Of a stretch of DNA of 32,658 nucleotides, positions 12,602 through 32,181 are shown in pieces. Within the stretch, counting starts at the first letter, position 1. Each line of letters opens with the position of its first letter. The stretch is taken from assembly GCA_964593285.1 (NCBI GenBank), contig CAZQHZ010000015.1:1-32658 (forward strand), read 5' to 3'. A program made the position numbers and the translations under genes. The stretch comes from an uncultured Methanosarcinales archaeon. Lineage in GTDB: Archaea > Nanobdellota > Nanobdellia > Woesearchaeales > DSVV01. The notes beneath the pieces are model-generated. The model was not told where the DNA came from. It ran no database searches and saw only the letters and a list, made by a program, of their open reading frames with translations.

Positions 12602-12686
12602 TTGTCATTTTATTTTTTTAATAATTTCTAATTAAAGTATTTATTTTTTCATAAACTTTATATTTAATTTAAAATTCTTTAAATTG

Positions 12687-14624
12687 ATGGGAAAAAAAGA
12701 AAAATTCATTCCAAAATTTAATTTTTCTCCAAAAGGAAGTCAGCCTGATGCTATTAACAAACTATTAAACGGGTTAAAAAAAAAACAAAGGTTTCAAACA
12801 TTACTTGGAGCTACAGGCTCTGGAAAAACTTTTACTATGGCTAATATCATAAAAGAAATAAATAAACCAACTTTAATTATTGCACATAATAAAACACTTG
12901 CAGCACAGCTTTATAATGAGTTTAAAGATTTTTTTCCAGAAAATAGGATTGAATATTTTGTTTCATATTATGATTATTATCAACCTGAAAGTTATCTTCC
13001 ACAAAAAGATCAATATATTGAAAAAGATGCACAAATAAATCCTAAAATAGAACAGATGAGGCTTTCATCAACTGCATCTATTTTATCTAGAAACGATGTA
13101 ATTGTTGTTGCTAGTGTTTCTTGTATTTATGGTCTTGGAAATCCTGAAAATTTTAAAAATTTAGGTTTTGAAATTAAAAAAAATATGAAAATTAAAAGAC
13201 AAGATATTTTAATGAAATTAATTAATATTCAGTTTGAGCGAAATGATACAGAATTAATGAAAGGAAGATTTAGAGTTAGAGGAAATATTATTGATTTTAT
13301 TCCTGGGTATTATGATGATATTATTAGAATTGAAATGAGTAATGATAAAATTTTAAAGATTTATGATGTTGAAAAAACAAGTGGTAAGATAACTAATGAA
13401 CTAGATTATTTTTATGTATATCCTGCAAAGCATTTTGTAACTGAACATAGTCAATTAAAAAAAGCAATAAATTCTATAAAAAAAGAATTACATGAAACTT
13501 TGCCTAAATTAGATCTAATTGAAAAACATAGATTAAAACAAAAAACGATGTATGATATTGAGATTTTAAATGAAACAGGGCACTGCAAAGGAATTGAAAA
13601 TTATTCAAGGCATTTTGATTTTAGAAAAAAAGGAGAAAAACCATATGTACTACTTGATTATTTTGGTGATGATTTTTTAATGATAATTGATGAAAGCCAT
13701 CAAACATTGCCTCAATTAAATGCTATGTATAAAGGAGATTATTCAAGGAAGAAAAATCTTGTTGATTATGGTTTTAGGCTTCCAAGTGCCTTTGATAATA
13801 GACCATTAAAATTTAATGAATTTGAAAAATATATGAAAAATACAATTTTTGTTTCAGCAACTCCTGGCGAGTATGAATTAAATAAATCATCACAAATAGT
13901 TGAGCAAATTATTAGACCAACAGGATTAGTTGATCCAAAAGTTATAATAAAACCAACAAAGAATCAAATTATTGATATTAAAAAAGAAATTAAAAATACA
14001 ATTAAAAAGAAAAATAGAATTTTACTTACAACATTAACAAAAAAATTAGCAGAAGAATTAACTGATTATCTTGGAAATGAAGGAATTAAAACAAGATATT
14101 TACATTCTGAAATTGACACTTTAGAGAGAAGTGAAATTATTCGTGAATTAAGACTTGGAAAATTTGATTGTTTAGTTGGAATAAATTTACTCAGAGAAGG
14201 CCTTGATATTCCTGAAGTTGGTTTTATTGGAATACTTGATGCTGATAAGGAAGGGTTTTTACGAGATTATAAAAGTTTGATTCAAATAATTGGAAGAGCT
14301 GCTAGAAATTTAGATTCAAAGGTAGTTTTATATGCAGATAAAATAACTGATTCTATGAAAAAAGCAATTAATGAAACTAATAGACGACGATTACTTCAAA
14401 TTGAATTTAATCAAAAACATAATATAAAACCCAAAACAATAATTAAACCAATAAAAGAAAAACAAGTTGAAATAAAAGATGTTAAAAATATACCAAAAGG
14501 ACAAATCCCAAATTTATTAATTGAATTAGAAGAAGATATGAAAGTTGCTGCAGAAAAGTTAGATTTTGAAAAAGCAATTATGCTTAGGGATAAAATAAAT
14601 AAATTAAAAGACAAGGTTAAATGA
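12687..14624 (+). CDS. uvrB: Excinuclease ABC subunit B
   Basis: GATGSGKT, HNKTLAAQL, FVSYYDYYQPE, DESH, GINLLREGLD, GRAARN and C-terminal UVR domain. Confidence 0.98.
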   Translation: MGKKEKFIPKFNFSPKGSQPDAINKLLNGLKKKQRFQTLLGATGSGKTFTMANIIKEINKPTLIIAHNKTLAAQLYNEFKDFFPENRIEYFVSYYDYYQPESYLPQKDQYIEKDAQINPKIEQMRLSSTASILSRNDVIVVASVSCIYGLGNPENFKNLGFEIKKNMKIKRQDILMKLINIQFERNDTELMKGRFRVRGNIIDFIPGYYDDIIRIEMSNDKILKIYDVEKTSGKITNELDYFYVYPAKHFVTEHSQLKKAINSIKKELHETLPKLDLIEKHRLKQKTMYDIEILNETGHCKGIENYSRHFDFRKKGEKPYVLLDYFGDDFLMIIDESHQTLPQLNAMYKGDYSRKKNLVDYGFRLPSAFDNRPLKFNEFEKYMKNTIFVSATPGEYELNKSSQIVEQIIRPTGLVDPKVIIKPTKNQIIDIKKEIKNTIKKKNRILLTTLTKKLAEELTDYLGNEGIKTRYLHSEIDTLERSEIIRELRLGKFDCLVGINLLREGLDIPEVGFIGILDADKEGFLRDYKSLIQIIGRAARNLDSKVVLYADKITDSMKKAINETNRRRLLQIEFNQKHNIKPKTIIKPIKEKQVEIKDVKNIPKGQIPNLLIELEEDMKVAAEKLDFEKAIMLRDKINKLKDKVK

Positions 14625-14897
14625 ATTTAGGTTAATATCTTTTCTATTTATTTATAGATTTGTAAACTATTTATTAGATTTAGACATAAAGTGTTTCTTT
14701 TTGCTTCTTCAATTGTTTTAGCGTCATTTCAAAAATACTATATTAGATTTAGATTGCTTGAAATATTGGTTCAATATAGGCTTCTTTTGAAATTTAAATA
14801 TCTAAAAAAGTGTGTTGATTATTTGTTTTTTAGAATTATTAAAAATCTTTCAATTTTTTAAAGAAAAGTTTATTAATTGTTTATTACTAATAATATT

Positions 14898-14993
14898 ATG
14901 CTAAAAAAATTAATATTCAAAAAACCTTAGAAAACAAAACAATTATTAACTGGCAGGATTAGATTAAAGTATCAATATACCAAAAAATGGTAA
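14898..14993 (+). pseudogene. Gene scar; tail resembles a type I R-M HsdS C-terminus
   Basis: One frame reads MLKKLIFKKP*KTKQLLTGRIRLKYQYTKKW*; QLLTGRIRL matches the usual HsdS end (QLLTGKxR). Confidence 0.4.
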
Positions 14994-15013
14994 AATCTTA
15001 CCAAAAAATGGTA
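14978..15013 (+). promoter_or_regulatory. Tandem palindromic operator, TACCA-N5-TGGTA x2
   Basis: Identical 15-mers TACCAAAAAATGGTA at 14978-14992 and 14999-15013, directly upstream of the TTTAAAAA TATA box of the MNT gene. Confidence 0.7.
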
Positions 15014-15047
15014 AACTTTAAAAACTAGCTAATATATCAACACTAAA

Positions 15048-15620
15048 ATGAAAGCAGAAGATAAAATTTACAAAGTATTTTTTGAATTACAAGAGCCAAA
15101 GCTCTATTATAATCAGATTAAAGAGCATTCAAAACTATCTCATAGTTCACTTCAAAACTCAATAGAAAAATTAAAAAAATCAAACATTATAGAAGAAGAA
15201 AAAACAAAATCAAATACCTTCTACAAGATAAACGATAAAAAGCTGTTTGCATTAAAATTTTCTGAAATAGCAATAACTAAATTTAATAAATTAAAATCTA
15301 ATATTAAAACTCCCTTGAACAATTTTTTAAAACACCTCCCCGAAGAAATATACACTATAATCCTTTTTGGTTCAGCATCAAGAGGTGAAGAAATAAAAGA
15401 TAGCGATATTGACTTATTAATTATATCAAACAAAAAGCAAAACCTTTCAAAAAATAAAAAAGAAGCAGAAATCACTTCAAAATATCCAATATCTTTATTT
15501 CAAGCAACAACTTCACAATTTAAACAAAATAAAGATGATGTAATAATTCAGGCAAGAAAAACAGGATTTCCAATATACAAGGAACAAAATTTTTACGAGG
15601 TACTTTTAGATGGATATTAA
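15048..15620 (+). CDS. wHTH plus minimal nucleotidyltransferase (MntA-like antitoxin)
   Basis: N-terminal wHTH (LSHSSLQNSIEKL...NTFYKI); ILFGSASRGE...SDIDLLII. Confidence 0.9.
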   Translation: MKAEDKIYKVFFELQEPKLYYNQIKEHSKLSHSSLQNSIEKLKKSNIIEEEKTKSNTFYKINDKKLFALKFSEIAITKFNKLKSNIKTPLNNFLKHLPEEIYTIILFGSASRGEEIKDSDIDLLIISNKKQNLSKNKKEAEITSKYPISLFQATTSQFKQNKDDVIIQARKTGFPIYKEQNFYEVLLDGY

Positions 15621-16107
15621 AAGATTATTTGAAGATGAAAAATATCTTAAAAAAGAATTAAAGTTTTTCATAAATAAAAAACAAATAAAAATTATTAAGC
15701 AAAACAAAGAACTAGTAAAATCACATATAAAAAAAGCAAGGCATAATCTTGAATTTTATAACCTCAACAAAAAATACAATAAATTTAACGATTGGCTTAT
15801 TGTAACTTTATATTATTCACTATATCATTCAGCTTTAGCATTAATAACAAATAAAAATTATACTTCAAAAAATCATTATGCAACAATACTTATACTAATC
15901 AAAGAATACAAAATCACAAAACAAGAAGTTGAATTGTTAAACGAGCTTTCTATCAACAAAGAAGATGCAGAACTTTATACAAGATTAAAAGACGATAGGC
16001 ACGATGCAAGCTATCAAACAGATATAAAATTTAATGAACAAAAAATAAAAGAATATGAAGACAAGGTCTTTGAATTCATAAATAAAACTGAAGAACTGAT
16101 AAAATGA
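15610..16107 (+). CDS. HEPN domain protein (toxin partner of MNT)
   Basis: KARHNL, W.IVTLYYSLYHSALAL, SKNH and RHDASY (Rx4Y); overlaps MNT by 11 nt. Confidence 0.88.
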   Translation: MDIKRLFEDEKYLKKELKFFINKKQIKIIKQNKELVKSHIKKARHNLEFYNLNKKYNKFNDWLIVTLYYSLYHSALALITNKNYTSKNHYATILILIKEYKITKQEVELLNELSINKEDAELYTRLKDDRHDASYQTDIKFNEQKIKEYEDKVFEFINKTEELIK

Positions 16108-16143
16108 ATGTAGCGCAAATTAAAAGAAAAAGGAATATTAAAA

Positions 16144-16177
16144 AGAGTTGGTTCAGATAAAGCAGGTTATTGGAAAA
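16144..16177 (+). repeat. 34-bp direct repeat, copy 1 (in wHTH-tail remnant 16114-16191)
   Basis: AGAGTTGGTTCAGATAAAGCAGGTTATTGGAAAA, identical to 17827-17860. Confidence 0.9.
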
Positions 16178-16188
16178 TAACAAATAAA

Positions 16189-16479
16189 TAAAAGCTTTCA
16201 TTATGTTTGTATTATTTACAACATCATTATTTAATAATCAAGAAAGCATTAAAACTCCTTGCTCTGTAAATACATAATGTAAATATCTTCTAAAACCCAA
16301 ACTTGAGGTAACAAATTGGCACCTCCGATTTTTAAATTCTTCATTATTTAATTCAAAGCAATAATTATCTGGAAATCTTTTATTATTTCGTTTTACAGAT
16401 TTATTTAAATCTATAGTTTCAATTTTATAAAATTTAGCTAAATCATAATCTAGCATTTCTCTAATAGTATAAATCTTTT
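16189..16479 (-). pseudogene. ORF6N (KilA-N-like) DNA-binding domain pseudogene
   Basis: KIYTIRE-MLDYDLAKFY...VKRNNKRFP...FTEQGVLMLS*LLNN...IMKAF: short deletion before MLD and premature TGA with homology continuing past it. Confidence 0.8.
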
Positions 16480-16571
16480 TTAATTAATTCAAAAAAAACA
16501 GAAAAAATTTTAACCACACTGGACAAGTATAAGTGAAGTATTTAAATATGTATTAATATTACCTATATTAA

Positions 16572-16638
16572 ATGAAAATGAAATTATTCCATGATAAAAA
16601 AGTCAAGGTTAGATGAAAATGAAGAAAAATAGTATTTG
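16572..16638 (+). pseudogene. Bro-N-like N-terminal remnant
   Basis: MKMKLFHDKKV then frameshifted DENEEK*Y, resembling KLFxxKKVRxxWDxxxEKWYF; TATA at 16541-16548. Confidence 0.45.
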
Positions 16639-16724
16639 CTTACAACTTTCAAAGCAAAATGTTAAGAGAAATTGCAGATAATGTAAAAACAAATCGATAT
16701 AGATTTTATAAAAAGGTATTAAAA

Positions 16725-17765
16725 ATGAAAAATAATAAAGATATTTCAATTAAATCATCAACTGGGAAATATTTGACATTTGTAGCATCTACGGGCAACC
16801 AAAAAACATCAATTGAAATGAGATATGAAGATGAAAATATATGGATGACTCAAAAAATGATAGCAGAATTATATGGCGTCTCAATTCCTGCAATCAATCA
16901 ACATATAAAAACACTAATTGAAAATCATGAACTAGATATTGCAACTATTAAGAAATTCTTAATAGTTCAAAAAGAAGGAACTAGGAAAGTCAAAAGAGAA
17001 CAAGAACACTACAACTTACAAGCAATTATTTCTATAGGATTTAAAATTGAAAACGAAAGAGCAGTTCAATTTCGTAAATGGGCAAGACAAATAGTAAAAG
17101 ATTACACTATTCAAGGTTGGACTATGGATGAAGATCGTTTTAAACAAGCCAATCAATTTGATAAAGAATTCTTTAATCGTCAGTTACAAAAAATCAGAGA
17201 GATAAGAGCAAGTGAAAGAATGTTTTATCAAAAAGTTACTGATATATATGCAACAAGTGTTGATTATGACCCAATGGCACAAACTACAATCAAATTTTTT
17301 AAAATAGTACAAAATAAACTTCATTATGCAGTTCATAGACATACTGCACCAGAATTAATATATAAAAGAGCAAATGCAAATAAAAAAAATATGGGTTTAA
17401 CCACTTGGAATGATGCTCCTTTAGGTAAAATTCAAAAATTTGATGTAGCTATTGCAAAGAATTATTTAACTAATAAAGAAATACGTTTTTTAGAAAGACT
17501 TGTAACTATGTATTTAGATTATGCAGAAATGCAAGCAGAAAGAAATATTCCTATGACTATGGAAGATTGGATAAAACGATTAGATTCATTTATAGAGTTT
17601 AATGGACAAAAACTATTAATGGATAAAGGAAAAATTAGTCATGAACAAGCAAAATTATATGCAGAAACCCAATTTGAAAAATATAGAGTTGTTCAAGATA
17701 GATTATTTGAAAATGATTTTGATCGTTTTTTAAAACTTAAAGATATGACTAAAAAGAAAAATTAA
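16725..17765 (+). CDS. Virulence RhuM family protein
   Basis: WMTQKMIAELY, HYNLQAIISIG, FRKWA, IREIRASERMFYQKVTDIYA, VQNKLHYA and AKNYL; ATG at 16725 preferred over 16659. Confidence 0.92.
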   Translation: MKNNKDISIKSSTGKYLTFVASTGNQKTSIEMRYEDENIWMTQKMIAELYGVSIPAINQHIKTLIENHELDIATIKKFLIVQKEGTRKVKREQEHYNLQAIISIGFKIENERAVQFRKWARQIVKDYTIQGWTMDEDRFKQANQFDKEFFNRQLQKIREIRASERMFYQKVTDIYATSVDYDPMAQTTIKFFKIVQNKLHYAVHRHTAPELIYKRANANKKNMGLTTWNDAPLGKIQKFDVAIAKNYLTNKEIRFLERLVTMYLDYAEMQAERNIPMTMEDWIKRLDSFIEFNGQKLLMDKGKISHEQAKLYAETQFEKYRVVQDRLFENDFDRFLKLKDMTKKKN

Positions 17766-17766
17766 G

Positions 17767-17868
17767 ATGGTAGGATTTAACTTTGAAAAAAACATTGAAA
17801 AACTAAAACATACAGGAAAGATAGTCAGAGTTGGTTCAGATAAAGCAGGTTATTGGAAAAATACATAA
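17767..17868 (+). pseudogene. 33-codon wHTH-tail remnant carrying repeat copy 2
   Basis: MVGFNFEKNIEKLKHTGKIVRVGSDKAGYWKNT*, like the C-terminal wing of Fic or AlbA_2-ATPase wHTH proteins. Confidence 0.55.
17827..17860 (+). repeat. 34-bp direct repeat, copy 2
   Basis: Identical to 16144-16177. Confidence 0.9.
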
Positions 17869-17871
17869 ATA

Positions 17872-18516
17872 TTAATCAAATCCTTTTTCTCCTTTCATTA
17901 ATATAAAATTAAAAAAACCATGATTTTCAATATTAATTTTATCATCTTTTTTTATTAATTTAGTCATTTTTTGAAAATTTTTACCAACCGGTGCAACAAT
18001 TATTCCAAAGTCATTTAATTGATTAATTAATTCAGTAAATATTTCTTTTATTGCGCACGTTACAATAATTTTATCATAAGGTGCATTCTTTTTATAACCA
18101 AAAGCACCATCGCCATGTACTAACTCAATATCAAAATTTTTATCTTTAATTAATTTTTTTAATTTATCAATTGAATTTTTTTCATATTCAATTGTTGTAA
18201 CTTTGCCATTTTTAACAATTTCTTTAATTAAAACAGCATTCCACATTGACCCTGTGCCAATTTCTAAAACATTATCGCCTTTTTTTAAATCTAGTAAATT
18301 AAGCATTAATGCAACAGTGTAGGGCTGAGAAATTGTTTGATTATTAGAAATTAAAAGAGCATTATCTGAATAGGCTAATTTTAAATCAATGTCATTATCT
18401 AAAAATAAATGTCTTTTGTGTTTTCTCATTGCATTAAAAATTAATTCATTATTAACACCATATTCTTTAATTGTATTTATCATGTTTTCATTTAATGAAT
18501 CGATATAATTTACCAT
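17872..18516 (-). CDS. pcm: Protein-L-isoaspartate O-methyltransferase
   Basis: RHLF, AYSD, QTISQPYTVA, VLEIGTGS, GDG..GY...APYDKIIVT and APVG; ATG at 18516. Confidence 0.93.
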   Translation of the reverse strand: MVNYIDSLNENMINTIKEYGVNNELIFNAMRKHKRHLFLDNDIDLKLAYSDNALLISNNQTISQPYTVALMLNLLDLKKGDNVLEIGTGSMWNAVLIKEIVKNGKVTTIEYEKNSIDKLKKLIKDKNFDIELVHGDGAFGYKKNAPYDKIIVTCAIKEIFTELINQLNDFGIIVAPVGKNFQKMTKLIKKDDKINIENHGFFNFILMKGEKGFD

Positions 18517-18623
18517 TTTAAATAAAGAAAACAAATGAATTATTTTAATATTTTCATATCTACTAAAACATTTAATCAAAAAAACATCAAAAATATAAAT
18601 GATTATTAATTTTACAATTTGCT

Positions 18624-21425
18624 ATGAAAAATCTAATTATAAAAAGGGCACGTGAACATAATTTAAAAAATATTAATGTTGAGATTCCAAGGAATAAGTT
18701 AGTTGTAATTACTGGCCTTTCTGGCTCTGGAAAATCAACACTTGCATTTGACACAATATATGCTGAAGGACAGCGAAGATATGTTGAATCATTATCTTCT
18801 TATGCAAGACAATTTTTGGGCTTAATGAATAAACCAGATGTTGATTCAATTGAAGGTTTATCTCCTGCAATTTCAATAGACCAAAAAACTACATCAAAAA
18901 ATCCTAGGAGTACTGTTGGTACTGTTACTGAAATATATGATTATTTAAGATTATTATTTGCAAGGGTTGGTGATGCATATTGCCCTCTGCATAATATCAA
19001 AATAGAATCTAATTCACCTGAAAAAATTAAAGAATCAATTAAAAAAAATACAGACATAATTGTTTATGCACCAATAGTTAGACAAAAAAAAGGAACATAT
19101 GAAAAATTAATTGAAGATATACAAAAGGATGGATTTATGACTGTTAGAGTTAATAACAAAGAGTATTCAACTAATGAAAAAATCCCTCTTGAAAGATATA
19201 AAAAACATGATATTGATATTTTAATTGATGAATTAAATACAAGTGATGAATCAAGATTGATTGAAAGCTTAGAACTTGCATTAAAAAAATCAAAAGGCTT
19301 AGTGATAATAAAAGAGAAAAAAGGTAGTGAAAAATTATATTCTCAAAATTTTGCATGTCCTATCTGTAATTTTTCATTTGAAGAATTACAACCTAGAATG
19401 TTTTCATTTAATAGTCCATTTGGTGCATGCGAAGTATGTCATGGACTTGGAATAAAGATGGAATTTGATCCAGATTTAATAATTCCAGATAAAAATAAAT
19501 CAATTGCTGATGGTGCGATTATGATTTATAGAAATGCTATTGATGGATGGCGCGGGCAGATGATTGGAAATATTGCAAAAAATTTTGGTTTTTCAATATT
19601 AACACCAATAAAAGATTTAACAAAAGAACAATTTGACATATTAATGTATGGTTCAGATAAAGAGATTAAATTTACATATAATAGTAGAAATAGTAATACA
19701 AGTTGGAATTCTGTTAATACTTGGGAAGGATTAATTCCTCAATCTGAAAGATTATATCAACAAACTGAATCTGATTATAGACGAAATGAGTTGGAAAAAT
19801 TTATGAGAGTTTTAAAATGTCCTAGGTGTAATGGAAAAAGATTAAATGAAAAAGCATTAGCTGTTAAAATAGATAATATGTCAATAATTGATGTTACTAA
19901 TTTATCAATATTAAATTCAATTAAATTTTTTTTAAAATTAAAATTATCTAAAACAAAAGAAAAAATTGCAAAGCAAGTTTTAAAAGAAATTAATTCAAGG
20001 CTTGATTTTTTAAAAAAAGTTGGATTGGATTATTTAACACTATCGAGAAGTGCATCAACTTTATCTGGTGGTGAAGCACAAAGAATAAGACTTGCAACAC
20101 AAATTGGATCTAGTTTAACTGGAGTTTTATATGTATTAGATGAGCCATCAATTGGCCTTCATCAGCGGGATAATCAAAAATTAATTGATACCCTAAAAAA
20201 TTTAAGAGATCAAGAAAATAGTGTTATTGTAGTTGAACATGATGAAGATACAATTCTTGCATCTGATTTTGTAATAGATATAGGCCCATATGCAGGAGTT
20301 AATGGTGGAGAAATTGTTGCAACTGGAACTCCTAGTGAAATTCGAAAAAATAAAAACTCTTTAACTGCAAAATATTTAAATTCAGAATTAAAAATAGATA
20401 TTCCAAAAACACGACGAAAATCAAATGAATTTATTAAAATAATTGGTGCAAGTGAAAACAATTTAAAAAATATAGATGTTAAAATACCACTATCAACCTT
20501 GTGCTTAATTACTGGTGTATCTGGATCTGGTAAATCTACATTGATTTATGAAATATTATATAAAGCTATGATGAAAAAATTACATAATTCTAAAGAAATT
20601 CCGGGGAAACATAAAGAGATTTTATTTGATTCAAATATTGATAAGGTAATAATTATTGATCAAAGCCCTATTGGTAAAACACCAAGAAGTAATCCTGCAA
20701 CGTATACTAAAGTTTTTGATGAAATTAGATCCTTATTTTCACAAACAAAAGATGCAAAATTAAAAGGATACAAACAAGGTAGATTTTCATTTAATGTTCC
20801 TGGTGGTAGATGTGAAAATTGCCATGGTGATGGTGTTATTAAAATTGAGATGAATTTTTTACCTGATGTTTATGTAGAATGTGAAGAATGTAAAGGAAAA
20901 CGATATAACAAAGAAACACTAGAAATTAAATTTAAAAATAAAAATATTTCTGATGTATTAAATATGAGTGTTGATGAAGCTTATGAATTTTTTGTAAATA
21001 TTCCTAGATTAAAAAAAAAATTAGAAACACTAAAGCGAGTTGGTCTTGGTTATGTTAAATTAGGTCAAAGTTCAACTACATTATCTGGTGGTGAAGCTCA
21101 AAGAATAAAAATTACACGAGAATTATCAAAGCGTTCAACTGGAAAAACATTATATTTACTAGATGAGCCAACAACCGGGCTTCATTTTCATGATGTAAAA
21201 AAATTAATTAAGGTTTTAAATGATTTAACTGATAAAAAAAATACTGTTATTGTAATTGAGCATAATTTGGATGTTATAAAATCAGCTGATTACATTATTG
21301 ATATTGGTCCTGAAGGAGGGGAATTTGGTGGGGAAATTATAGCCACAGGAACCCCTGAAGAGTTGATAAAAAATAAAAAAAGCTACACTTCAAAATATTT
21401 AAAAAAAGTTCTATTAAAACAATAA
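18624..21425 (+). CDS. uvrA: Excinuclease ABC subunit A
   Basis: Two ABC cassettes ([25 protein letters not shown] x2, [16 protein letters not shown]) and zinc fingers. Confidence 0.98.
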
Positions 21426-21506
21426 AACTGTTGTGACTAATTAGTAATAAAAACAGATAAATTTAAATATTGGTTATGTTTCTAATAAATAAAATAGGTG
21501 ATTTTT

Positions 21507-21893
21507 ATGAATAATTATAACAAAGCTGAAAATTTATGCCAAAAAGCATTGAAGCATATAGCAAAATATAAAATCAACAAACCTAATGGGACATTTAGTA
21601 TTAATTATGATAAAATAAACACAAATGATTATTTAAAAATGCTTTCTTGTTATTTTGCTTCAATGAATGTTTTAAAAAAAGATAAGAAAATACATGTAAA
21701 AGATAAAGCAGATTTAGAATATAAATTAATTCCAGAAGTTAAAAGACAAATAAACCATTTAAAAGAGTATAAAAATAAAGAAGATTCAACATTTTATTTA
21801 CTTTTGATAAACAATCCAATGCCAAAAAAGGCCCAAAACATAAAAAAAGAATTGGAAAATATGATGTATGTTAAAACGCAAAATTATAATTAA
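21507..21893 (+). CDS. Hypothetical protein
   Basis: 128-aa ORF with AGGTGA RBS and TTTAAATA upstream; no family recognised. Confidence 0.6.
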   Translation: MNNYNKAENLCQKALKHIAKYKINKPNGTFSINYDKINTNDYLKMLSCYFASMNVLKKDKKIHVKDKADLEYKLIPEVKRQINHLKEYKNKEDSTFYLLLINNPMPKKAQNIKKELENMMYVKTQNYN

Positions 21894-21945
21894 TTTAAAA
21901 TTATTTATTTTAAAATATATTTTTTGAAAAAAGATGATAATGAAT

Positions 21946-23508
21946 TTATTTTAGTAATTCTTTTTTACGTAAAAGCTTATTGTAATTTATTGCAAATCTA
22001 TGTGCTTCATCCCTAATTCTTCTAATTAATAATAATACTTTATCTTTATCATCTAATTTTATTGAGTCTTTTTTATCTTTTATGAATATTTCTTCTTGTT
22101 TTTTTGCGATTGAAATAATTGGTATGTTTAAATTTAGTTTATTTAATTCAGTAACTGCAGAAGATAATTGTCCCTTTCCACCATCAATAATTATTAAATT
22201 GGGCATTTTTTTATCTTCATTTATCAATCTAGTATATCTTCTTTTAATAACCTCAGCAATTGCTGCAAAATCATCAATTTTAGTTATTGATTTAATTTTA
22301 AATCTTCTATAATCTTTTTTATTTATAATTCCATCAACAAATGATACCATTGATGCAACAGTCAAAGAACCAGATAAATGCGATATATCAAAACATTCAA
22401 TAACTTTTGGATATTGTTTTAAATTTAGTTTTTTCATCATTTCATTTAAAATTAATTTATTGTTAAGATATGTAATTTCTAAATTTTTCTTGGCAAGTTC
22501 TAATAATTCTTTTTTAATTCCTTTTTTTGGGATAATTAGTTCAACATTGCTTTTTTTTATGTTTGTTAAAAAATCTTTTAGTGTTTTATCTGTTTTTTCT
22601 GGAATAATTATTTTTTTTGGAACTTTATTTTCTGAATAGTATTGTACAATAAATTCATCTAAAAAATTTTTCTTATAATCAAATTCAAATTCAATTTTAT
22701 TATCAAGTGTTCCTCTATAAATATTAAAAATTATTAACTTTACTTTATTATCTATTATTATAAAATTAATAACATCTTCGTCATAATTTCTTTTTTTTTC
22801 TAAAATTTGTTTTTCATTTAATACATTAATTGAATCAATTATTTTTTTAATTTCTAGTGCTTTTTCAAATTTGTTTTCATTTGAATTTTTTTTCATTTCT
22901 TTTTCTAATTTTTTTATTACATCACTAGTTTTTGAAAGTAAAATGTCTTTTGCTTTTTTTATATTTTTATCATATTCTTCTTTTGATATTGCATTTATGC
23001 AAGGTGCACTGCACAAATTAATATGGTATCTAAGACATTCTTTTTTTGGCATTTTTCTGCACGTTCTAATTTTAAAAATTTTTTGTAATGTATATAAAAT
23101 ATTATTTCTATCATTACTTAAAATAAATGGGCCAAAAAATTCGCCAGAATTATCAATTTTCCTTGCAACAATTAATCTTTGAAATTTTTCATTTGTTAGT
23201 TTTATAAATCCATATCTTTTAGAATCTTTTAAATCGATGTTATATTTTGGTTTATGTTTTTTTATTAATGTATTTTCAAGTATAAACGCTTCAATTTCAT
23301 TGTATGTTATGATAAAATCAATTATTTTTATATTTTTAATTAAACTTTTTGTTTTATTATCAAATTCGTTTTTACTAAAATAACTAGAAATTCTATTTTT
23401 TAGATTTTTTGCTTTTCCTATATAAATAATTTTATTATTTTTATCTTTAAAAATATAACAGCCTGGTTTTTCTGGAATTTTATCTTTTTGAATTTTTAAT
23501 TCTTCCAT
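21946..23508 (-). CDS. uvrC: Excinuclease ABC subunit C, lacking C-terminal HhH domain
   Basis: GIY-YIG (PGCY, YIGKA), Cys cluster, IECFDISH, IIDGGKGQL and RDEAHRFA; stops shortly afterwards. Confidence 0.95.
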   Translation of the reverse strand: MEELKIQKDKIPEKPGCYIFKDKNNKIIYIGKAKNLKNRISSYFSKNEFDNKTKSLIKNIKIIDFIITYNEIEAFILENTLIKKHKPKYNIDLKDSKRYGFIKLTNEKFQRLIVARKIDNSGEFFGPFILSNDRNNILYTLQKIFKIRTCRKMPKKECLRYHINLCSAPCINAISKEEYDKNIKKAKDILLSKTSDVIKKLEKEMKKNSNENKFEKALEIKKIIDSINVLNEKQILEKKRNYDEDVINFIIIDNKVKLIIFNIYRGTLDNKIEFEFDYKKNFLDEFIVQYYSENKVPKKIIIPEKTDKTLKDFLTNIKKSNVELIIPKKGIKKELLELAKKNLEITYLNNKLILNEMMKKLNLKQYPKVIECFDISHLSGSLTVASMVSFVDGIINKKDYRRFKIKSITKIDDFAAIAEVIKRRYTRLINEDKKMPNLIIIDGGKGQLSSAVTELNKLNLNIPIISIAKKQEEIFIKDKKDSIKLDDKDKVLLLIRRIRDEAHRFAINYNKLLRKKELLK

Positions 23509-25402: not shown

Positions 25403-26593
25403 TTATCTGCTGTAATAATCTTCTAATATTACCATATCAATGTCATCATTATCTTTTAGAGAATATAGTTTTCCATTAGCAATTTCTGTTATTTCTTTTG
25501 CTAATTCTTCACCTTTTTTATCAAGATTTATCCCAATAAAAGAAATGGTTATTTTTAGTTGTGCAGCTTTTGATGCAGCTTTAATTGTATCTTCTTTAGG
25601 TTTATTGCCCGAAGTTACAAGTGCGTCACTAATTATTACTAAATGATTTGTTGCATTTTTATCATGAAATAATTCAATTGCTTTATTGATTGTTTTTGAA
25701 ATGTCTGTTTCACTATAAGCTTTTATTGAAATCATTTCTTTTAATAGCAATGAAAAATCATTTGTTGGAGGAATTTCTTTTTGTATTTCTTTTCCAAAAA
25801 TAATTAATCCAACTTCATCTTTTTCATTTATAGCTTTATAAGCTAAAGCAACACCTGCTTTTTTACATTTATCAATTTTATCTCCTTTCATTGAAGCAGA
25901 TGAATCTAGTGCATAAATTATATATATTTTTCCTTTGGACTGCCTTTCAAATACTTTTAAATCATTTAATTGAATATTTTTATGACCTCTTTTAATTGCA
26001 GTTTTTATTGATCTTCTAATAGAAATATCTTTATAATTATTTCCTCTTTTATAATTTTTAATATCCATCTTTTCGCCATAAACCATTGGTTTTTTATTGA
26101 ATTTATTGCCTAAATTACCAATTGATTCAATTTTATCAATTTCTTCAACCAAACTTATTAGTGCAGTTAGTTCAATTCCTTTATCAGATAGAGAATAATC
26201 TTTATTTAGCAATTTATCTTTTTTTAATTTTTTAATTTTTTCATTCATCTTTTTTTTTAATTCATTTTGAAACTCTGGAACGTGAATGTTTTTTTCAATA
26301 TAGTCATCATTAAATCCACTAATTGCTTTAATTAACTTAGGCCCATAGATTTGTTTTGCAAGGTTATAATTATTGACTAGATTTTCAAACATTAAATCAG
26401 CATTAAAACCAGAAATATTATTATTGATTGCTTCATTTAATAATTTACCATCATCGATAGTTTCTTTATCATTTTCAATAACAGAATGCATTAGTTTATC
26501 ATCAACATTTTGAAACTGTAGTTTTCCACTCAATTCTTCTGCTTTTTCTTGTTCTTTTAATTTTGTTGTAGAGTAGTTGGTATTAGGGGTCAT
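25403..26593 (-). CDS. vWA domain protein (ChlD-like partner)
   Basis: DISIRRSIKTA, MIDAS LDSSASMKG, TDI and ISDA; ATG at 26593 overlaps the ATPase stop. Confidence 0.88.
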   Translation of the reverse strand: MTPNTNYSTTKLKEQEKAEELSGKLQFQNVDDKLMHSVIENDKETIDDGKLLNEAINNNISGFNADLMFENLVNNYNLAKQIYGPKLIKAISGFNDDYIEKNIHVPEFQNELKKKMNEKIKKLKKDKLLNKDYSLSDKGIELTALISLVEEIDKIESIGNLGNKFNKKPMVYGEKMDIKNYKRGNNYKDISIRRSIKTAIKRGHKNIQLNDLKVFERQSKGKIYIIYALDSSASMKGDKIDKCKKAGVALAYKAINEKDEVGLIIFGKEIQKEIPPTNDFSLLLKEMISIKAYSETDISKTINKAIELFHDKNATNHLVIISDALVTSGNKPKEDTIKAASKAAQLKITISFIGINLDKKGEELAKEITEIANGKLYSLKDNDDIDMVILEDYYSR

Positions 26594-27617
26594 CGCCTTT
26601 TGAATCAAAGTCAGATGATGAAGATACTGATGTATCTTCAGTAAATTTTTCAAATTCTTCTTTAATAAAAGAAGATGCATTTTTTAAATATTTTACACTT
26701 GGTTTTAATCTTATACGATGAGTTATAACTGAATTTATTGATTCTTTTACATCATTTAAAATAACTTTATTTCGATTATTTAAAAATGCATTAGATTGTG
26801 CTCTTTCATATAAACCAAGGGTTGCTCGAACACTTGGAACTTTTTCTAATTTATCATTTTCTCTAATTTTTCTAACAAAACCAACAATTATATTTTTAAT
26901 GTCATCACTTACTGTAACAAAGTTTTTTCCATAAATTGTAATTATTTTCTTTTCAGTTTCTAAATCTTCTGGATAATCCATGTATATTACATCAAATCTA
27001 TCAAGTAGTACATCAGATAATCTTTCTGTGTTTATATCTTTTGGATTCATTGTTGCAATTAAAATAAAATCTGTTTTAAAATCAATCTCATAATTTGAAA
27101 TTGTTGCTTTTCGCTCTTCTAAAACTTGTAGTAATGCGTTTTGTAATTTTTCTGGACATCTATTTATTTCATCAAAAAATAAAATTCCTTGGTTTGCTTT
27201 AAAAATTTTTCCAGGGGTAAATGCTTCTTTACTTGTAGGTCCAAATTCTATTGCTTTAATTGGATCAATATCACCAATTAAATCTTCAACAGTTAAATCA
27301 GGTGATCCTTGAACTCTTATAAATCTTTGAATTCCAGTAATTTCTTTTTTTTTAATATCTGAATTTGTTTTACATTTTGGACAAATAGGCTCGTTTGGAA
27401 GACAGTTATAACCACAATCATTTACTGTAATTGTTGGTAATATTTTTGCAATATTTTTTGCAAGTGTTGTTTTTCCAATTCCAGGTTGTCCAAAAATTGC
27501 TATATGTCTTTTCATTAAAAGAGCAGATTTGATTTCTCTTTTAACTTTAAATTGACCATAAATTTCATCAAATTTTTCATTTTTTAATTTTTCATTAAAT
27601 TCGTTATTTTTTTCCAT
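26583..27617 (-). CDS. AAA+ ATPase, ChlI/MoxR-like
   Basis: GQPGIGKT, CGYNC.P...CPKC, FFDEINR, QNALLQVLEE, ATMNP and LDRF. Confidence 0.9.
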   Translation of the reverse strand: MEKNNEFNEKLKNEKFDEIYGQFKVKREIKSALLMKRHIAIFGQPGIGKTTLAKNIAKILPTITVNDCGYNCLPNEPICPKCKTNSDIKKKEITGIQRFIRVQGSPDLTVEDLIGDIDPIKAIEFGPTSKEAFTPGKIFKANQGILFFDEINRCPEKLQNALLQVLEERKATISNYEIDFKTDFILIATMNPKDINTERLSDVLLDRFDVIYMDYPEDLETEKKIITIYGKNFVTVSDDIKNIIVGFVRKIRENDKLEKVPSVRATLGLYERAQSNAFLNNRNKVILNDVKESINSVITHRIRLKPSVKYLKNASSFIKEEFEKFTEDTSVSSSSDFDSKGDDP

Positions 27618-29447: not shown

Positions 29448-29723
29448 ATGCAAGAACAAAAAAACATATATAAATTGGAAAAAAATATGCCAATAAAAAG
29501 CTTTAAAGCTGGTGCTATTAAAGCAACACTTTGGGAAAACCAAACAAATGATGGTAGTGCTTCATTTAATACCATTAATTTAGATCGAGTGTTTAAAGCT
29601 AAAGATGGTAAATGGCAAAATACACATTATTTAAGGGTGCAAGATTTACCAAAGGCATTAATTGTTTTAAATAAGGCTTATGAATTTCTTGTTTTGAATT
29701 CTGTAATTAGTCCAGAAAATTGA
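29448..29723 (+). CDS. Small hypothetical protein, putative PC4-like ssDNA-binding fold
   Basis: KSFKAGAIKATLWEN...INLDRVFKAKDGKWQNT..LRVQDLPKA; strong AAGGAGGTG RBS at 29431-29439. Confidence 0.7.
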   Translation: MQEQKNIYKLEKNMPIKSFKAGAIKATLWENQTNDGSASFNTINLDRVFKAKDGKWQNTHYLRVQDLPKALIVLNKAYEFLVLNSVISPEN

Positions 29724-31069: not shown

Positions 31070-32119
31070 TTATGAGATGTTTTTATCTAATATCTCTTTT
31101 GATAAAGTTTTAATTTTACCTTTTTGATCATATAAAAAATGTGCATTTGGTCCAAACATATCATAAACTTTGCTTTTATGGTCTAAATAATGTAACTCTA
31201 AAGGATAATTTGATAATCCTTTATCTACTAATGTAATGTGAACCCCTCCTGGTTTTAAATAATTTAATCTTTCTCTATGATCATCACATCTATGATCAAT
31301 TATATAAAAACCTTTTAAATTTAAAGAACCATTACTTAATTTATAACAAATATTGTTAATGTTTTCTTCTGCTTTTTTTTGGTCTAATTCTACAATAGAA
31401 AATCCTAAAATATCTGCAAGCATTAGTTTATTTATTTTTTCATTATATTTTTTATGATAATTTGAATAATTATTCCAGTAATGATTTGTATCTTTACAAA
31501 CCTCAACTATAAATTTATCAATAGTACGATATATTTGTTTTTCATAATCTTTTATTTTTGATGTTGATTCATCTTCATAAAAATTTTCACCTAATTTTTC
31601 TGTAAGATATTTATGTTTTATTGAACGAATTATGTTTTTTATTTTACCATCTATTTTTTTATTTAATTTAAATCTATAGGAAAATATATGATTTAATTGA
31701 TTGTTGAAATAAAAATTAATATAATCATTTTTAGTAGGCATTGGTTGATTTGAATTCATTGCATTTAAAGTAATATTATCTAAAGAATATTGTTTATCGT
31801 ATGAATTTCTAACTTTTTTTCTTACATCTTCAAACGATCTTAACATAAATTGGTTTGATATTTGTTTTTTTGTCTTTGGAAAATTTATGTTGGAATTAGA
31901 AGTTATTCCTTCTATTATATTAGAAAATTTAGGAATGATAAAATTTTCATATATTTGTTTATAACCTTTTAGTCTACTTTTGATTATTTCTTCATTTTCA
32001 GGGTGAATAACTTTTTTGTGTTTAAAATAAGTATTTAAAAGGCATGCCAATGATGGTCCAAAACCAGATCCTTGTTCGAATATATATTCATTTAATTCTT
32101 GAGCTAATTTTTTTTTCAT
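31070..32119 (-). CDS. Hypothetical protein, divergent RelA/SpoT synthetase-like nucleotidyltransferase fold
   Basis: Ordered motifs YRFK...GK, LADILGFSIV, GGVHITL, PLELHY and GPNAHFLY; own TATA (TTTATATA) upstream. Confidence 0.55.
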   Translation of the reverse strand: MKKKLAQELNEYIFEQGSGFGPSLACLLNTYFKHKKVIHPENEEIIKSRLKGYKQIYENFIIPKFSNIIEGITSNSNINFPKTKKQISNQFMLRSFEDVRKKVRNSYDKQYSLDNITLNAMNSNQPMPTKNDYINFYFNNQLNHIFSYRFKLNKKIDGKIKNIIRSIKHKYLTEKLGENFYEDESTSKIKDYEKQIYRTIDKFIVEVCKDTNHYWNNYSNYHKKYNEKINKLMLADILGFSIVELDQKKAEENINNICYKLSNGSLNLKGFYIIDHRCDDHRERLNYLKPGGVHITLVDKGLSNYPLELHYLDHKSKVYDMFGPNAHFLYDQKGKIKTLSKEILDKNIS

Positions 32120-32181
32120 AAATTATCATTTTAAAGAACTACTATATAAATGTTTCTGTTTGTAACCACTTAGTAGTAGTT

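Follow-up and report, generated by a model that had tools for sequence, protein, structure and literature searches.

The RelA/SpoT homologues (RSH) described in the papers considered here transfer pyrophosphate to the 3' ribose of a purine, carried by GDP/GTP, by ADP/ATP or by the CCA end of tRNA, and where its role is described a tyrosine of the G-loop holds the acceptor base. That tyrosine is said to be critical for every (p)ppGpp synthetase, is presented in PMC11782079 as the conserved acceptor Tyr of alarmone synthetases, and is needed by the tRNA-modifying FaRel2 according to 10.1101/2021.04.30.441581. The FaRel2–APCPP structure, as described in PMC11782079, has an ATP donor site made up of R64, K66, S70, K74, D90, G93, R95, E145 and Q147. 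With regard to archaea, RelA/SpoT proteins are given as present in 41.7% of Woesearchaeota (PMC8407392), and (p)ppGpp as undetected in the archaea examined (PMC10249747); PMC5794853 and 10.1101/575399 were also drawn upon. Here we analyzed a stretch of 32,658 nucleotides (contig CAZQHZ010000015.1 of assembly GCA_964593285.1, in the archaeal order Woesearchaeales; hereafter the window), in which an open reading frame (ORF) near one end encodes a protein denoted P0001. Judged by sequence comparison, P0001 belongs to a DPANN-archaeal subfamily, not named before, of predicted single-domain RelA/SpoT synthetases, in which the donor half is retained and the acceptor half of the active site rebuilt.

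The P0001 family and its fold

A preliminary description of the window, made from the sequence alone, had regarded this ORF as an orphan, which it is not. A phmmer search with P0001 against 1.84 billion representative sequences gave 49 proteins at E<=0.001, one of which (P0047) was a repeat artefact; omitting this, six fragments and the fusion P0037, we obtained an alignment, A2, of 41 members. Identities within the family range over 20–40%, with the catalytic and ATP-binding residues retained. Full-length members have 280–390 aa, and one metagenomic protein (P0037, 582 aa) carries an N-terminal histidine phosphatase (PF00300) fused to the family domain. Of the 41 members 11 match PF04607, two copies exceed the cut-off, and P0001 itself gives no match; most members, lying under the Pfam cut-off, would be missed by surveys. 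We found no description of the family in the literature searched, although bioRxiv supplements might hold members.

When the A2 profile was run against 401 genomes of the order, seven were matched, six by members and one by a weak match that was not counted, and in a phylum-wide sample of 401 genomes every match fell within the same order. Pattern scans added at least five archaeal-labelled genome loci (119 matches) and at least three metagenome loci (120 matches), while none of the 26 viral pattern matches, among those listed, was a family member. One member is labelled at its source as Candidatus Woesearchaeota and another as Nanoarchaeales/Nanobdellota, so that the earlier guess of a DPANN origin holds.

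The assignment to RSH agreed between profile, fold and motifs. With HHalign the family matched the long Rel proteins of the order at 93.4%, the strongest profile match to a SYNTH domain. In structure searches with the P0001 model the best matches were the housekeeping enzymes RelQ/RelP, whose lead over CapRel of <1 Z amounts to a tie, and the first Foldseek row was the pseudo-SYNTH domain of Acinetobacter baumannii SpoT (7qps, E 0.039). The model has an RSH-type Pol-beta fold, with an order of elements consistent with D236, E308, R149, K151 and K159 sharing one site. A Pfam scan of P0001 gave neither an HD domain nor any other family above cut-off. The preliminary reading of a stand-alone divergent SYNTH domain is supported, and D236 and E308 are both 41/41 in the homologues. 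That P0001 instead is a nucleotidyltransferase of the Pol-beta superfamily merely resembling RSH we regard as very improbable: all 30 better structure rows were RSH, the RSH motifs are conserved in register, and the Pfam table of the family holds no NTP_transf or Polbeta match.

Along the chain, additional N-terminal helices spanning about 40 aa precede the first SYNTH helix (40–72), which is followed by an insertion of about 70 aa and then by the strand and helix of motif 1. The N-terminal 145 aa, described earlier as unknown, include this first SYNTH helix, because the RelP/RelQ alignments start at residues 40–51. A second helical insertion follows the motif-1 helix and leads into the core; its presence had been seen correctly, but its size in P0001 is about 64 aa rather than 70 (76 residues where Rel has 12), and in most members it is about 40 aa (motif 1-to-2 gap 48–78 residues, median 53). 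The ordered chain stops about 6 residues past Y330, residues 337–349 having low pLDDT, and the model lacks the C-terminal bundle of RelP/RelQ.

The donor and acceptor halves of the predicted active site

All motif residues listed in the preliminary description (R149-x-K151...K159, D236-I-L-G, PGGVH294, E308 and G323-x-x-A-H327-x-x-Y330) are present in that order in the 349-aa ORF. Among the 855 ORFs of >=150 aa in the genome, a loose pattern of motif order and spacing, written once the alignment had been seen and thus post hoc, matched two, P0001 and the long Rel. The corresponding features are as follows.

31070..32119, minus strand: P0001 gene, 349-aa stand-alone protein of divergent, predicted RelA/SpoT SYNTH fold (ORF, family and fold comparison)
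31643..31675, minus strand: motif 1, R149-x-K151-x3-K155-x3-K159, putative ATP phosphate contacts (strand 144–150, helix from 153)
31397..31414, minus strand: motif 2, D236-x-x-G239-x-S241, with the predicted catalytic, Mg-binding Asp (alignment; roles from PMC11782079)
31238..31282, minus strand: rebuilt G-loop, D280-H-R-x-R-x4-K289-P290-G-G-x-H294, with Pro at the position of the acceptor-stacking Tyr of Rel (alignment)
31190..31198, minus strand: motif 4, E308-x-H310, with the predicted catalytic Glu, 310 being the Gln position (alignment)
31130..31153, minus strand: motif 5, G323-x-x-A-H327-x-x-Y330 (G 40/41, H 27/41, Y 38/41)

By motif position, the FaRel2 donor residues correspond to R149, K151, K155, K159, D236, G239, S241, E308 and H310 of P0001. 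Six of these are kept throughout nearly the whole family (R149 40/41, K151 41/41, K159 40/41, D236 41/41, G239 37/41 and E308 41/41). By comparison, then, the family retains both its RSH fold and the donor part of the active site. The other three are mostly kept in the family but missing from P0001: position 155 is Ser in 19/41 and Lys in P0001, position 241, which by PMC11782079 is that of the adenine-stacking Arg, is Lys or Arg in 30/41 and Ser in P0001, and position 310 is Gln in 29/41 and His in P0001. The preliminary description had counted the missing Ser, Arg and Gln among rewired acceptor-binding residues; the FaRel2–APCPP structure places all three in the donor site, so that this part of the claim falls.

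The altered acceptor site stands for one reason only, which is the family-wide exchange of the G-loop. In 33 of 33 Rel proteins of the order this loop reads D-x7-N-x-Y-Q-S-x-H with a D-to-H spacing of 14, and the same exact spacing is found in 26 of the 41 family members, yet Y-x-[SG]-x-H occurs in 33/33 Rel and in 0/41 members. Instead Tyr has become Pro (39/41) and Ser has become Gly (41/41), in a loop where P290 (39/41), G291 (39/41), G292 (41/41), R284 (36/41), R/K289 (38/41) and H294 (37/41) dominate. The alignment thus shows a rebuilt acceptor half, in which a Pro-Gly-Gly turn with conserved His and Arg flanks takes the place of the base-stacking Tyr. The Arg after E-x-Q, being kept in only 6/41, is also mostly lost across the family.

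Since the stacking Tyr is lost while the ATP-splitting machinery is kept, the family probably modifies a different molecule. It would bind Mg-ATP as other RSH do and transfer the beta-gamma pyrophosphate to a hydroxyl with release of AMP, its acceptor possibly being held through Arg and His contacts to phosphates and not as a stacked purine; in that case the product would not be ordinary (p)ppGpp. To this reading, an active pyrophosphotransferase with Mg-ATP as donor, a phosphate-held acceptor and a product other than ordinary (p)ppGpp, we give a probability of roughly one half. An RNA 3' end and a free nucleotide bound with relaxed base choice are acceptors that we can propose equally, though each would individually be an unlikely guess, and a sugar phosphate lacking a base or the hydroxyl of a protein is less probable still. 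That the family is active on an acceptor of a class new to the superfamily (for instance a base-less sugar phosphate, an RNA 3' end that is a pyrimidine or is used whatever its base, or a protein hydroxyl) is doubtful. The enzyme would act in the cytoplasm as the product of a single dispensable gene, and what restrains it would probably be its own insertions or a low activity and not a separate antitoxin.

The P0001 copy itself calls for caution: all three secondary donor contacts are kept in 10/41 members, P0013, P0015 and P0017 being members with a complete donor site, P0001 is among the 2/41 keeping none, and it may, at less than even odds, have little or no activity even in an active family. 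The same three missing contacts would fit a non-catalytic regulator or sensor, a pseudo-SYNTH that binds ATP behind a closed acceptor site and transfers nothing, as would the dispensable gene without antitoxin and the G-loop Tyr, which by pattern is missing from 41/41 members and is likewise lost in the pseudo-SYNTH of A. baumannii. In that domain, however, the catalytic Asp and Gln are lost as well (as given in PMC9974481), whereas the family has D236 and E308 in 41/41 and Gln at 310 in 29/41, and its loop was exchanged for a new conserved motif rather than decayed. The pseudo-enzyme put forward earlier as an alternative is therefore unlikely for the family as a whole, given the 41/41 retention of D236 and E308, but may apply to P0001 itself; a pseudo-SYNTH sensor seems to us unlikely, too.

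Other RelA/SpoT-type proteins and genomic context

The preliminary description had called RSH proteins rare in archaea, which does not apply to this order: PF04607 is above cut-off in 88 of 201 genomes. The host genome of the window (1.18 Mb, 95.9% complete) has an intact long Rel of its own (P0051, 641 aa, HD + SYNTH + TGS + ACT; L001:619-2544, minus strand), and in about 74 of the 201 genomes, by row count, a long frame is matched about as strongly as this Rel. A long Rel with HD domain is found in 6/11 carrier genomes, and the PF13328 hydrolase in none of three carrier genomes. A Rel alongside the family protein would suit an ordinary (p)ppGpp/(p)ppApp synthetase supplementing it, in which base binding would fall to H281, F322, Y/F305 or Y330; the top structural matches being housekeeping RelQ/RelP, the retained H294 (37/41) and H327 (27/41), and one copy coupled to a Rel-type HD gene point in the same direction. 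Against this stand the Tyr found in 33/33 Rel of the order, which is called critical for every (p)ppGpp synthetase, the RelQ/RelP lead of less than one Z unit, and the HD neighbour being seen in 1/12 loci, which together make an ordinary synthetase clearly unlikely.

The host genome also encodes a second divergent SYNTH-like protein (P0050, 472 aa; L002:643-2061, plus strand) with a weak PF04607 match (E 0.005). It has 24 homologue matches, two of them labelled Nanobdellota or Woesearchaeota, with R276, K278, D307, E414, Q416 and H435 invariant, and forms a family of its own, with HHalign values of 6% to A2 and 55% to Rel. Three related archaeal genomes (L020:979-2052, L320 and L322) further hold small alarmone synthetase proteins of about 355 aa resembling CapRel, a label that we assign on their motifs.

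We read 12 distinct loci of the family, L254 and L347 being one and the same. A Rad50-like gene follows the family gene in 4/12, a PF04013 tRNA methyltransferase lies 1–3 genes downstream in 3/12 (with RuBisCO preceding in two of those), 2/12 share an IF2/PUA/HerA site and 3/12 are unique sites. No small partner gene recurs across the 12 loci, and none of their scanned neighbours was annotated as an integrase or transposase. Because one genome (G040) has both flanking genes of the Rad50 site without the family gene, and because 0/5 relatives of carriers matched the family, the gene is dispensable and stands singly, at sites that are stable within a lineage. The family proteins diverge faster than their syntenic neighbours (38% against 45–56% identity, 47% against 68%, and 28% against 54%).

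Patchy gain or loss of a single gene, this faster divergence, and a retained donor site with the acceptor pocket lost would be compatible with an ATP pyrophosphohydrolase using water as acceptor, or with a defence toxin encoded by one gene, self-regulated and depleting ATP once triggered. The neighbours are, however, housekeeping genes and not defence islands, no PADLOC family was matched by more than 1/41 members, no PHROG match was found, viral pattern matches gave 0/26 members, and the conserved Arg-rich loop suggests a ligand; we hold either version to be improbable. Host manipulation, also suggested earlier, found no support, as 0/41 members have a transmembrane-strength hydrophobic stretch (19-residue hydropathy >1.6; no dedicated export predictor was run). 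Exported alarmone synthetases with a signal peptide or export domain are described in PMC12691689.

A phosphohydrolase-type gene lies directly upstream in 3/12 loci (DUF212, HAD and, in G037, Rel-type HD). In G037, as the only one of the 12 loci, the gene for a 497-aa protein (L015:6006-7499) whose HD motif is of a divergent Rel type overlaps the start of the family member by one base, and the two are possibly a hydrolase–synthetase pair. Together with the histidine-phosphatase fusion these upstream genes make up a post-hoc pattern of four unrelated families, and DUF212 is common in this genome family. A GGDEF domain protein was also seen near a family member in an archaeal genome (L139:8115-8816).

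In the window, a co-oriented DUF212 gene lies 62 bp upstream of the P0001 gene and radA is convergent on the other side. The third-position GC content (GC3) of the P0001 gene, 0.106, matches that of adjacent genes, and the P0001 sequence is recorded on three contigs, possibly from one shared source sample. A weak candidate for a promoter of its own could be read from the AT-rich sequence, following the archaeal promoter layout.

32143..32150, minus strand: TATA-like box, possible own promoter of the P0001 gene, 24 nt before the start codon (weak)

Elsewhere in the window, an HTH-nucleotidyltransferase (MNT) gene overlaps a HEPN gene (15048-16107), likely as a toxin–antitoxin pair, and a RhuM-family protein (PF13310, E 1.6e-105; 16659-17765) adjoins it between uvrB and uvrA, the RhuM and MNT-HEPN genes perhaps forming a small acquired patch. 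Bacterial-type uvrB, uvrA and uvrC are scattered over 11 kb (12684-23508) with other genes interspersed, and a MoxR/ChlI-like AAA ATPase gene is accompanied by an overlapping VWA gene (25403-27617). A 91-aa gene without Pfam match (29448-29723) lies upstream of radA, as it does in 5/5 same-family genomes at 47–55% identity.

Comparison with known systems

Should the acceptor class be new, a new pyrophosphorylated signal or modification would exist in DPANN archaea beside their own long Rel; should the family be inactive or make ordinary (p)ppGpp, it would be a minor addition to the catalogue. A fixed Pro-Gly-Gly in place of Tyr, with the residues for catalysis and ATP binding kept, is a test of the acceptor range of RSH, and the order, which encodes long Rel, proteins like CapRel and no fewer than two divergent families of SYNTH type, is a natural place to seek archaeal alarmone chemistry.

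A family known as TIGR04552/TIGR04562, uncharacterised and presumably also a divergent SYNTH, is matched in its C-terminal part by 1/43 proteins (E 3.8e-5, 23.2 bits against a cut-off of 125). The long Rel P0051 shares the D-to-H loop register with the P0001 family, but P0001 lacks its HD, TGS and ACT domains and has about 15% identity to it, and therefore did not split off recently from the resident Rel. In A. baumannii SpoT the pseudo-SYNTH is part of a multidomain hydrolase and has lost the catalytic residues, unlike this stand-alone family with its D236 and E308; P0001 keeps the Asp and has His at the Gln position.

Among toxic small alarmone synthetases (toxSAS) we compared CapRel (7ztb, 9erv), FaRel2 (8pu4), FaRel (8pu1) and Tas1/Apk1 (6ox6). 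The acceptor-stacking Tyr of FaRel2 is Y128, which the family lacks, and the C-terminal pseudo-zinc-finger antitoxin domain of CapRel is absent in P0001, with HHalign to three CapRel-like proteins at 2%. Across the 12 loci the family showed neither a cognate antitoxin nor a fused antitoxin domain, and no mobile context; with no conserved antitoxin and without the Tyr that FaRel2 requires, the toxSAS analogy drawn earlier is weak.

The guanine-stacking G-loop Tyr of the (p)ppGpp synthetases (Rel, RelA, RelP and RelQ) was not found in the family. RelQ and RelP (PDB 5ded, 6fgk and 6ewz) have 12–16% identity to P0001 and carry this Tyr where the family has Pro-Gly-Gly, and compared with them the family has the N-terminal extension of about 40 aa and the two insertions but not the C-terminal oligomerisation bundle. 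In its donor chemistry, as predicted from the retained motifs, P0001 would nonetheless be likened to a small alarmone synthetase.
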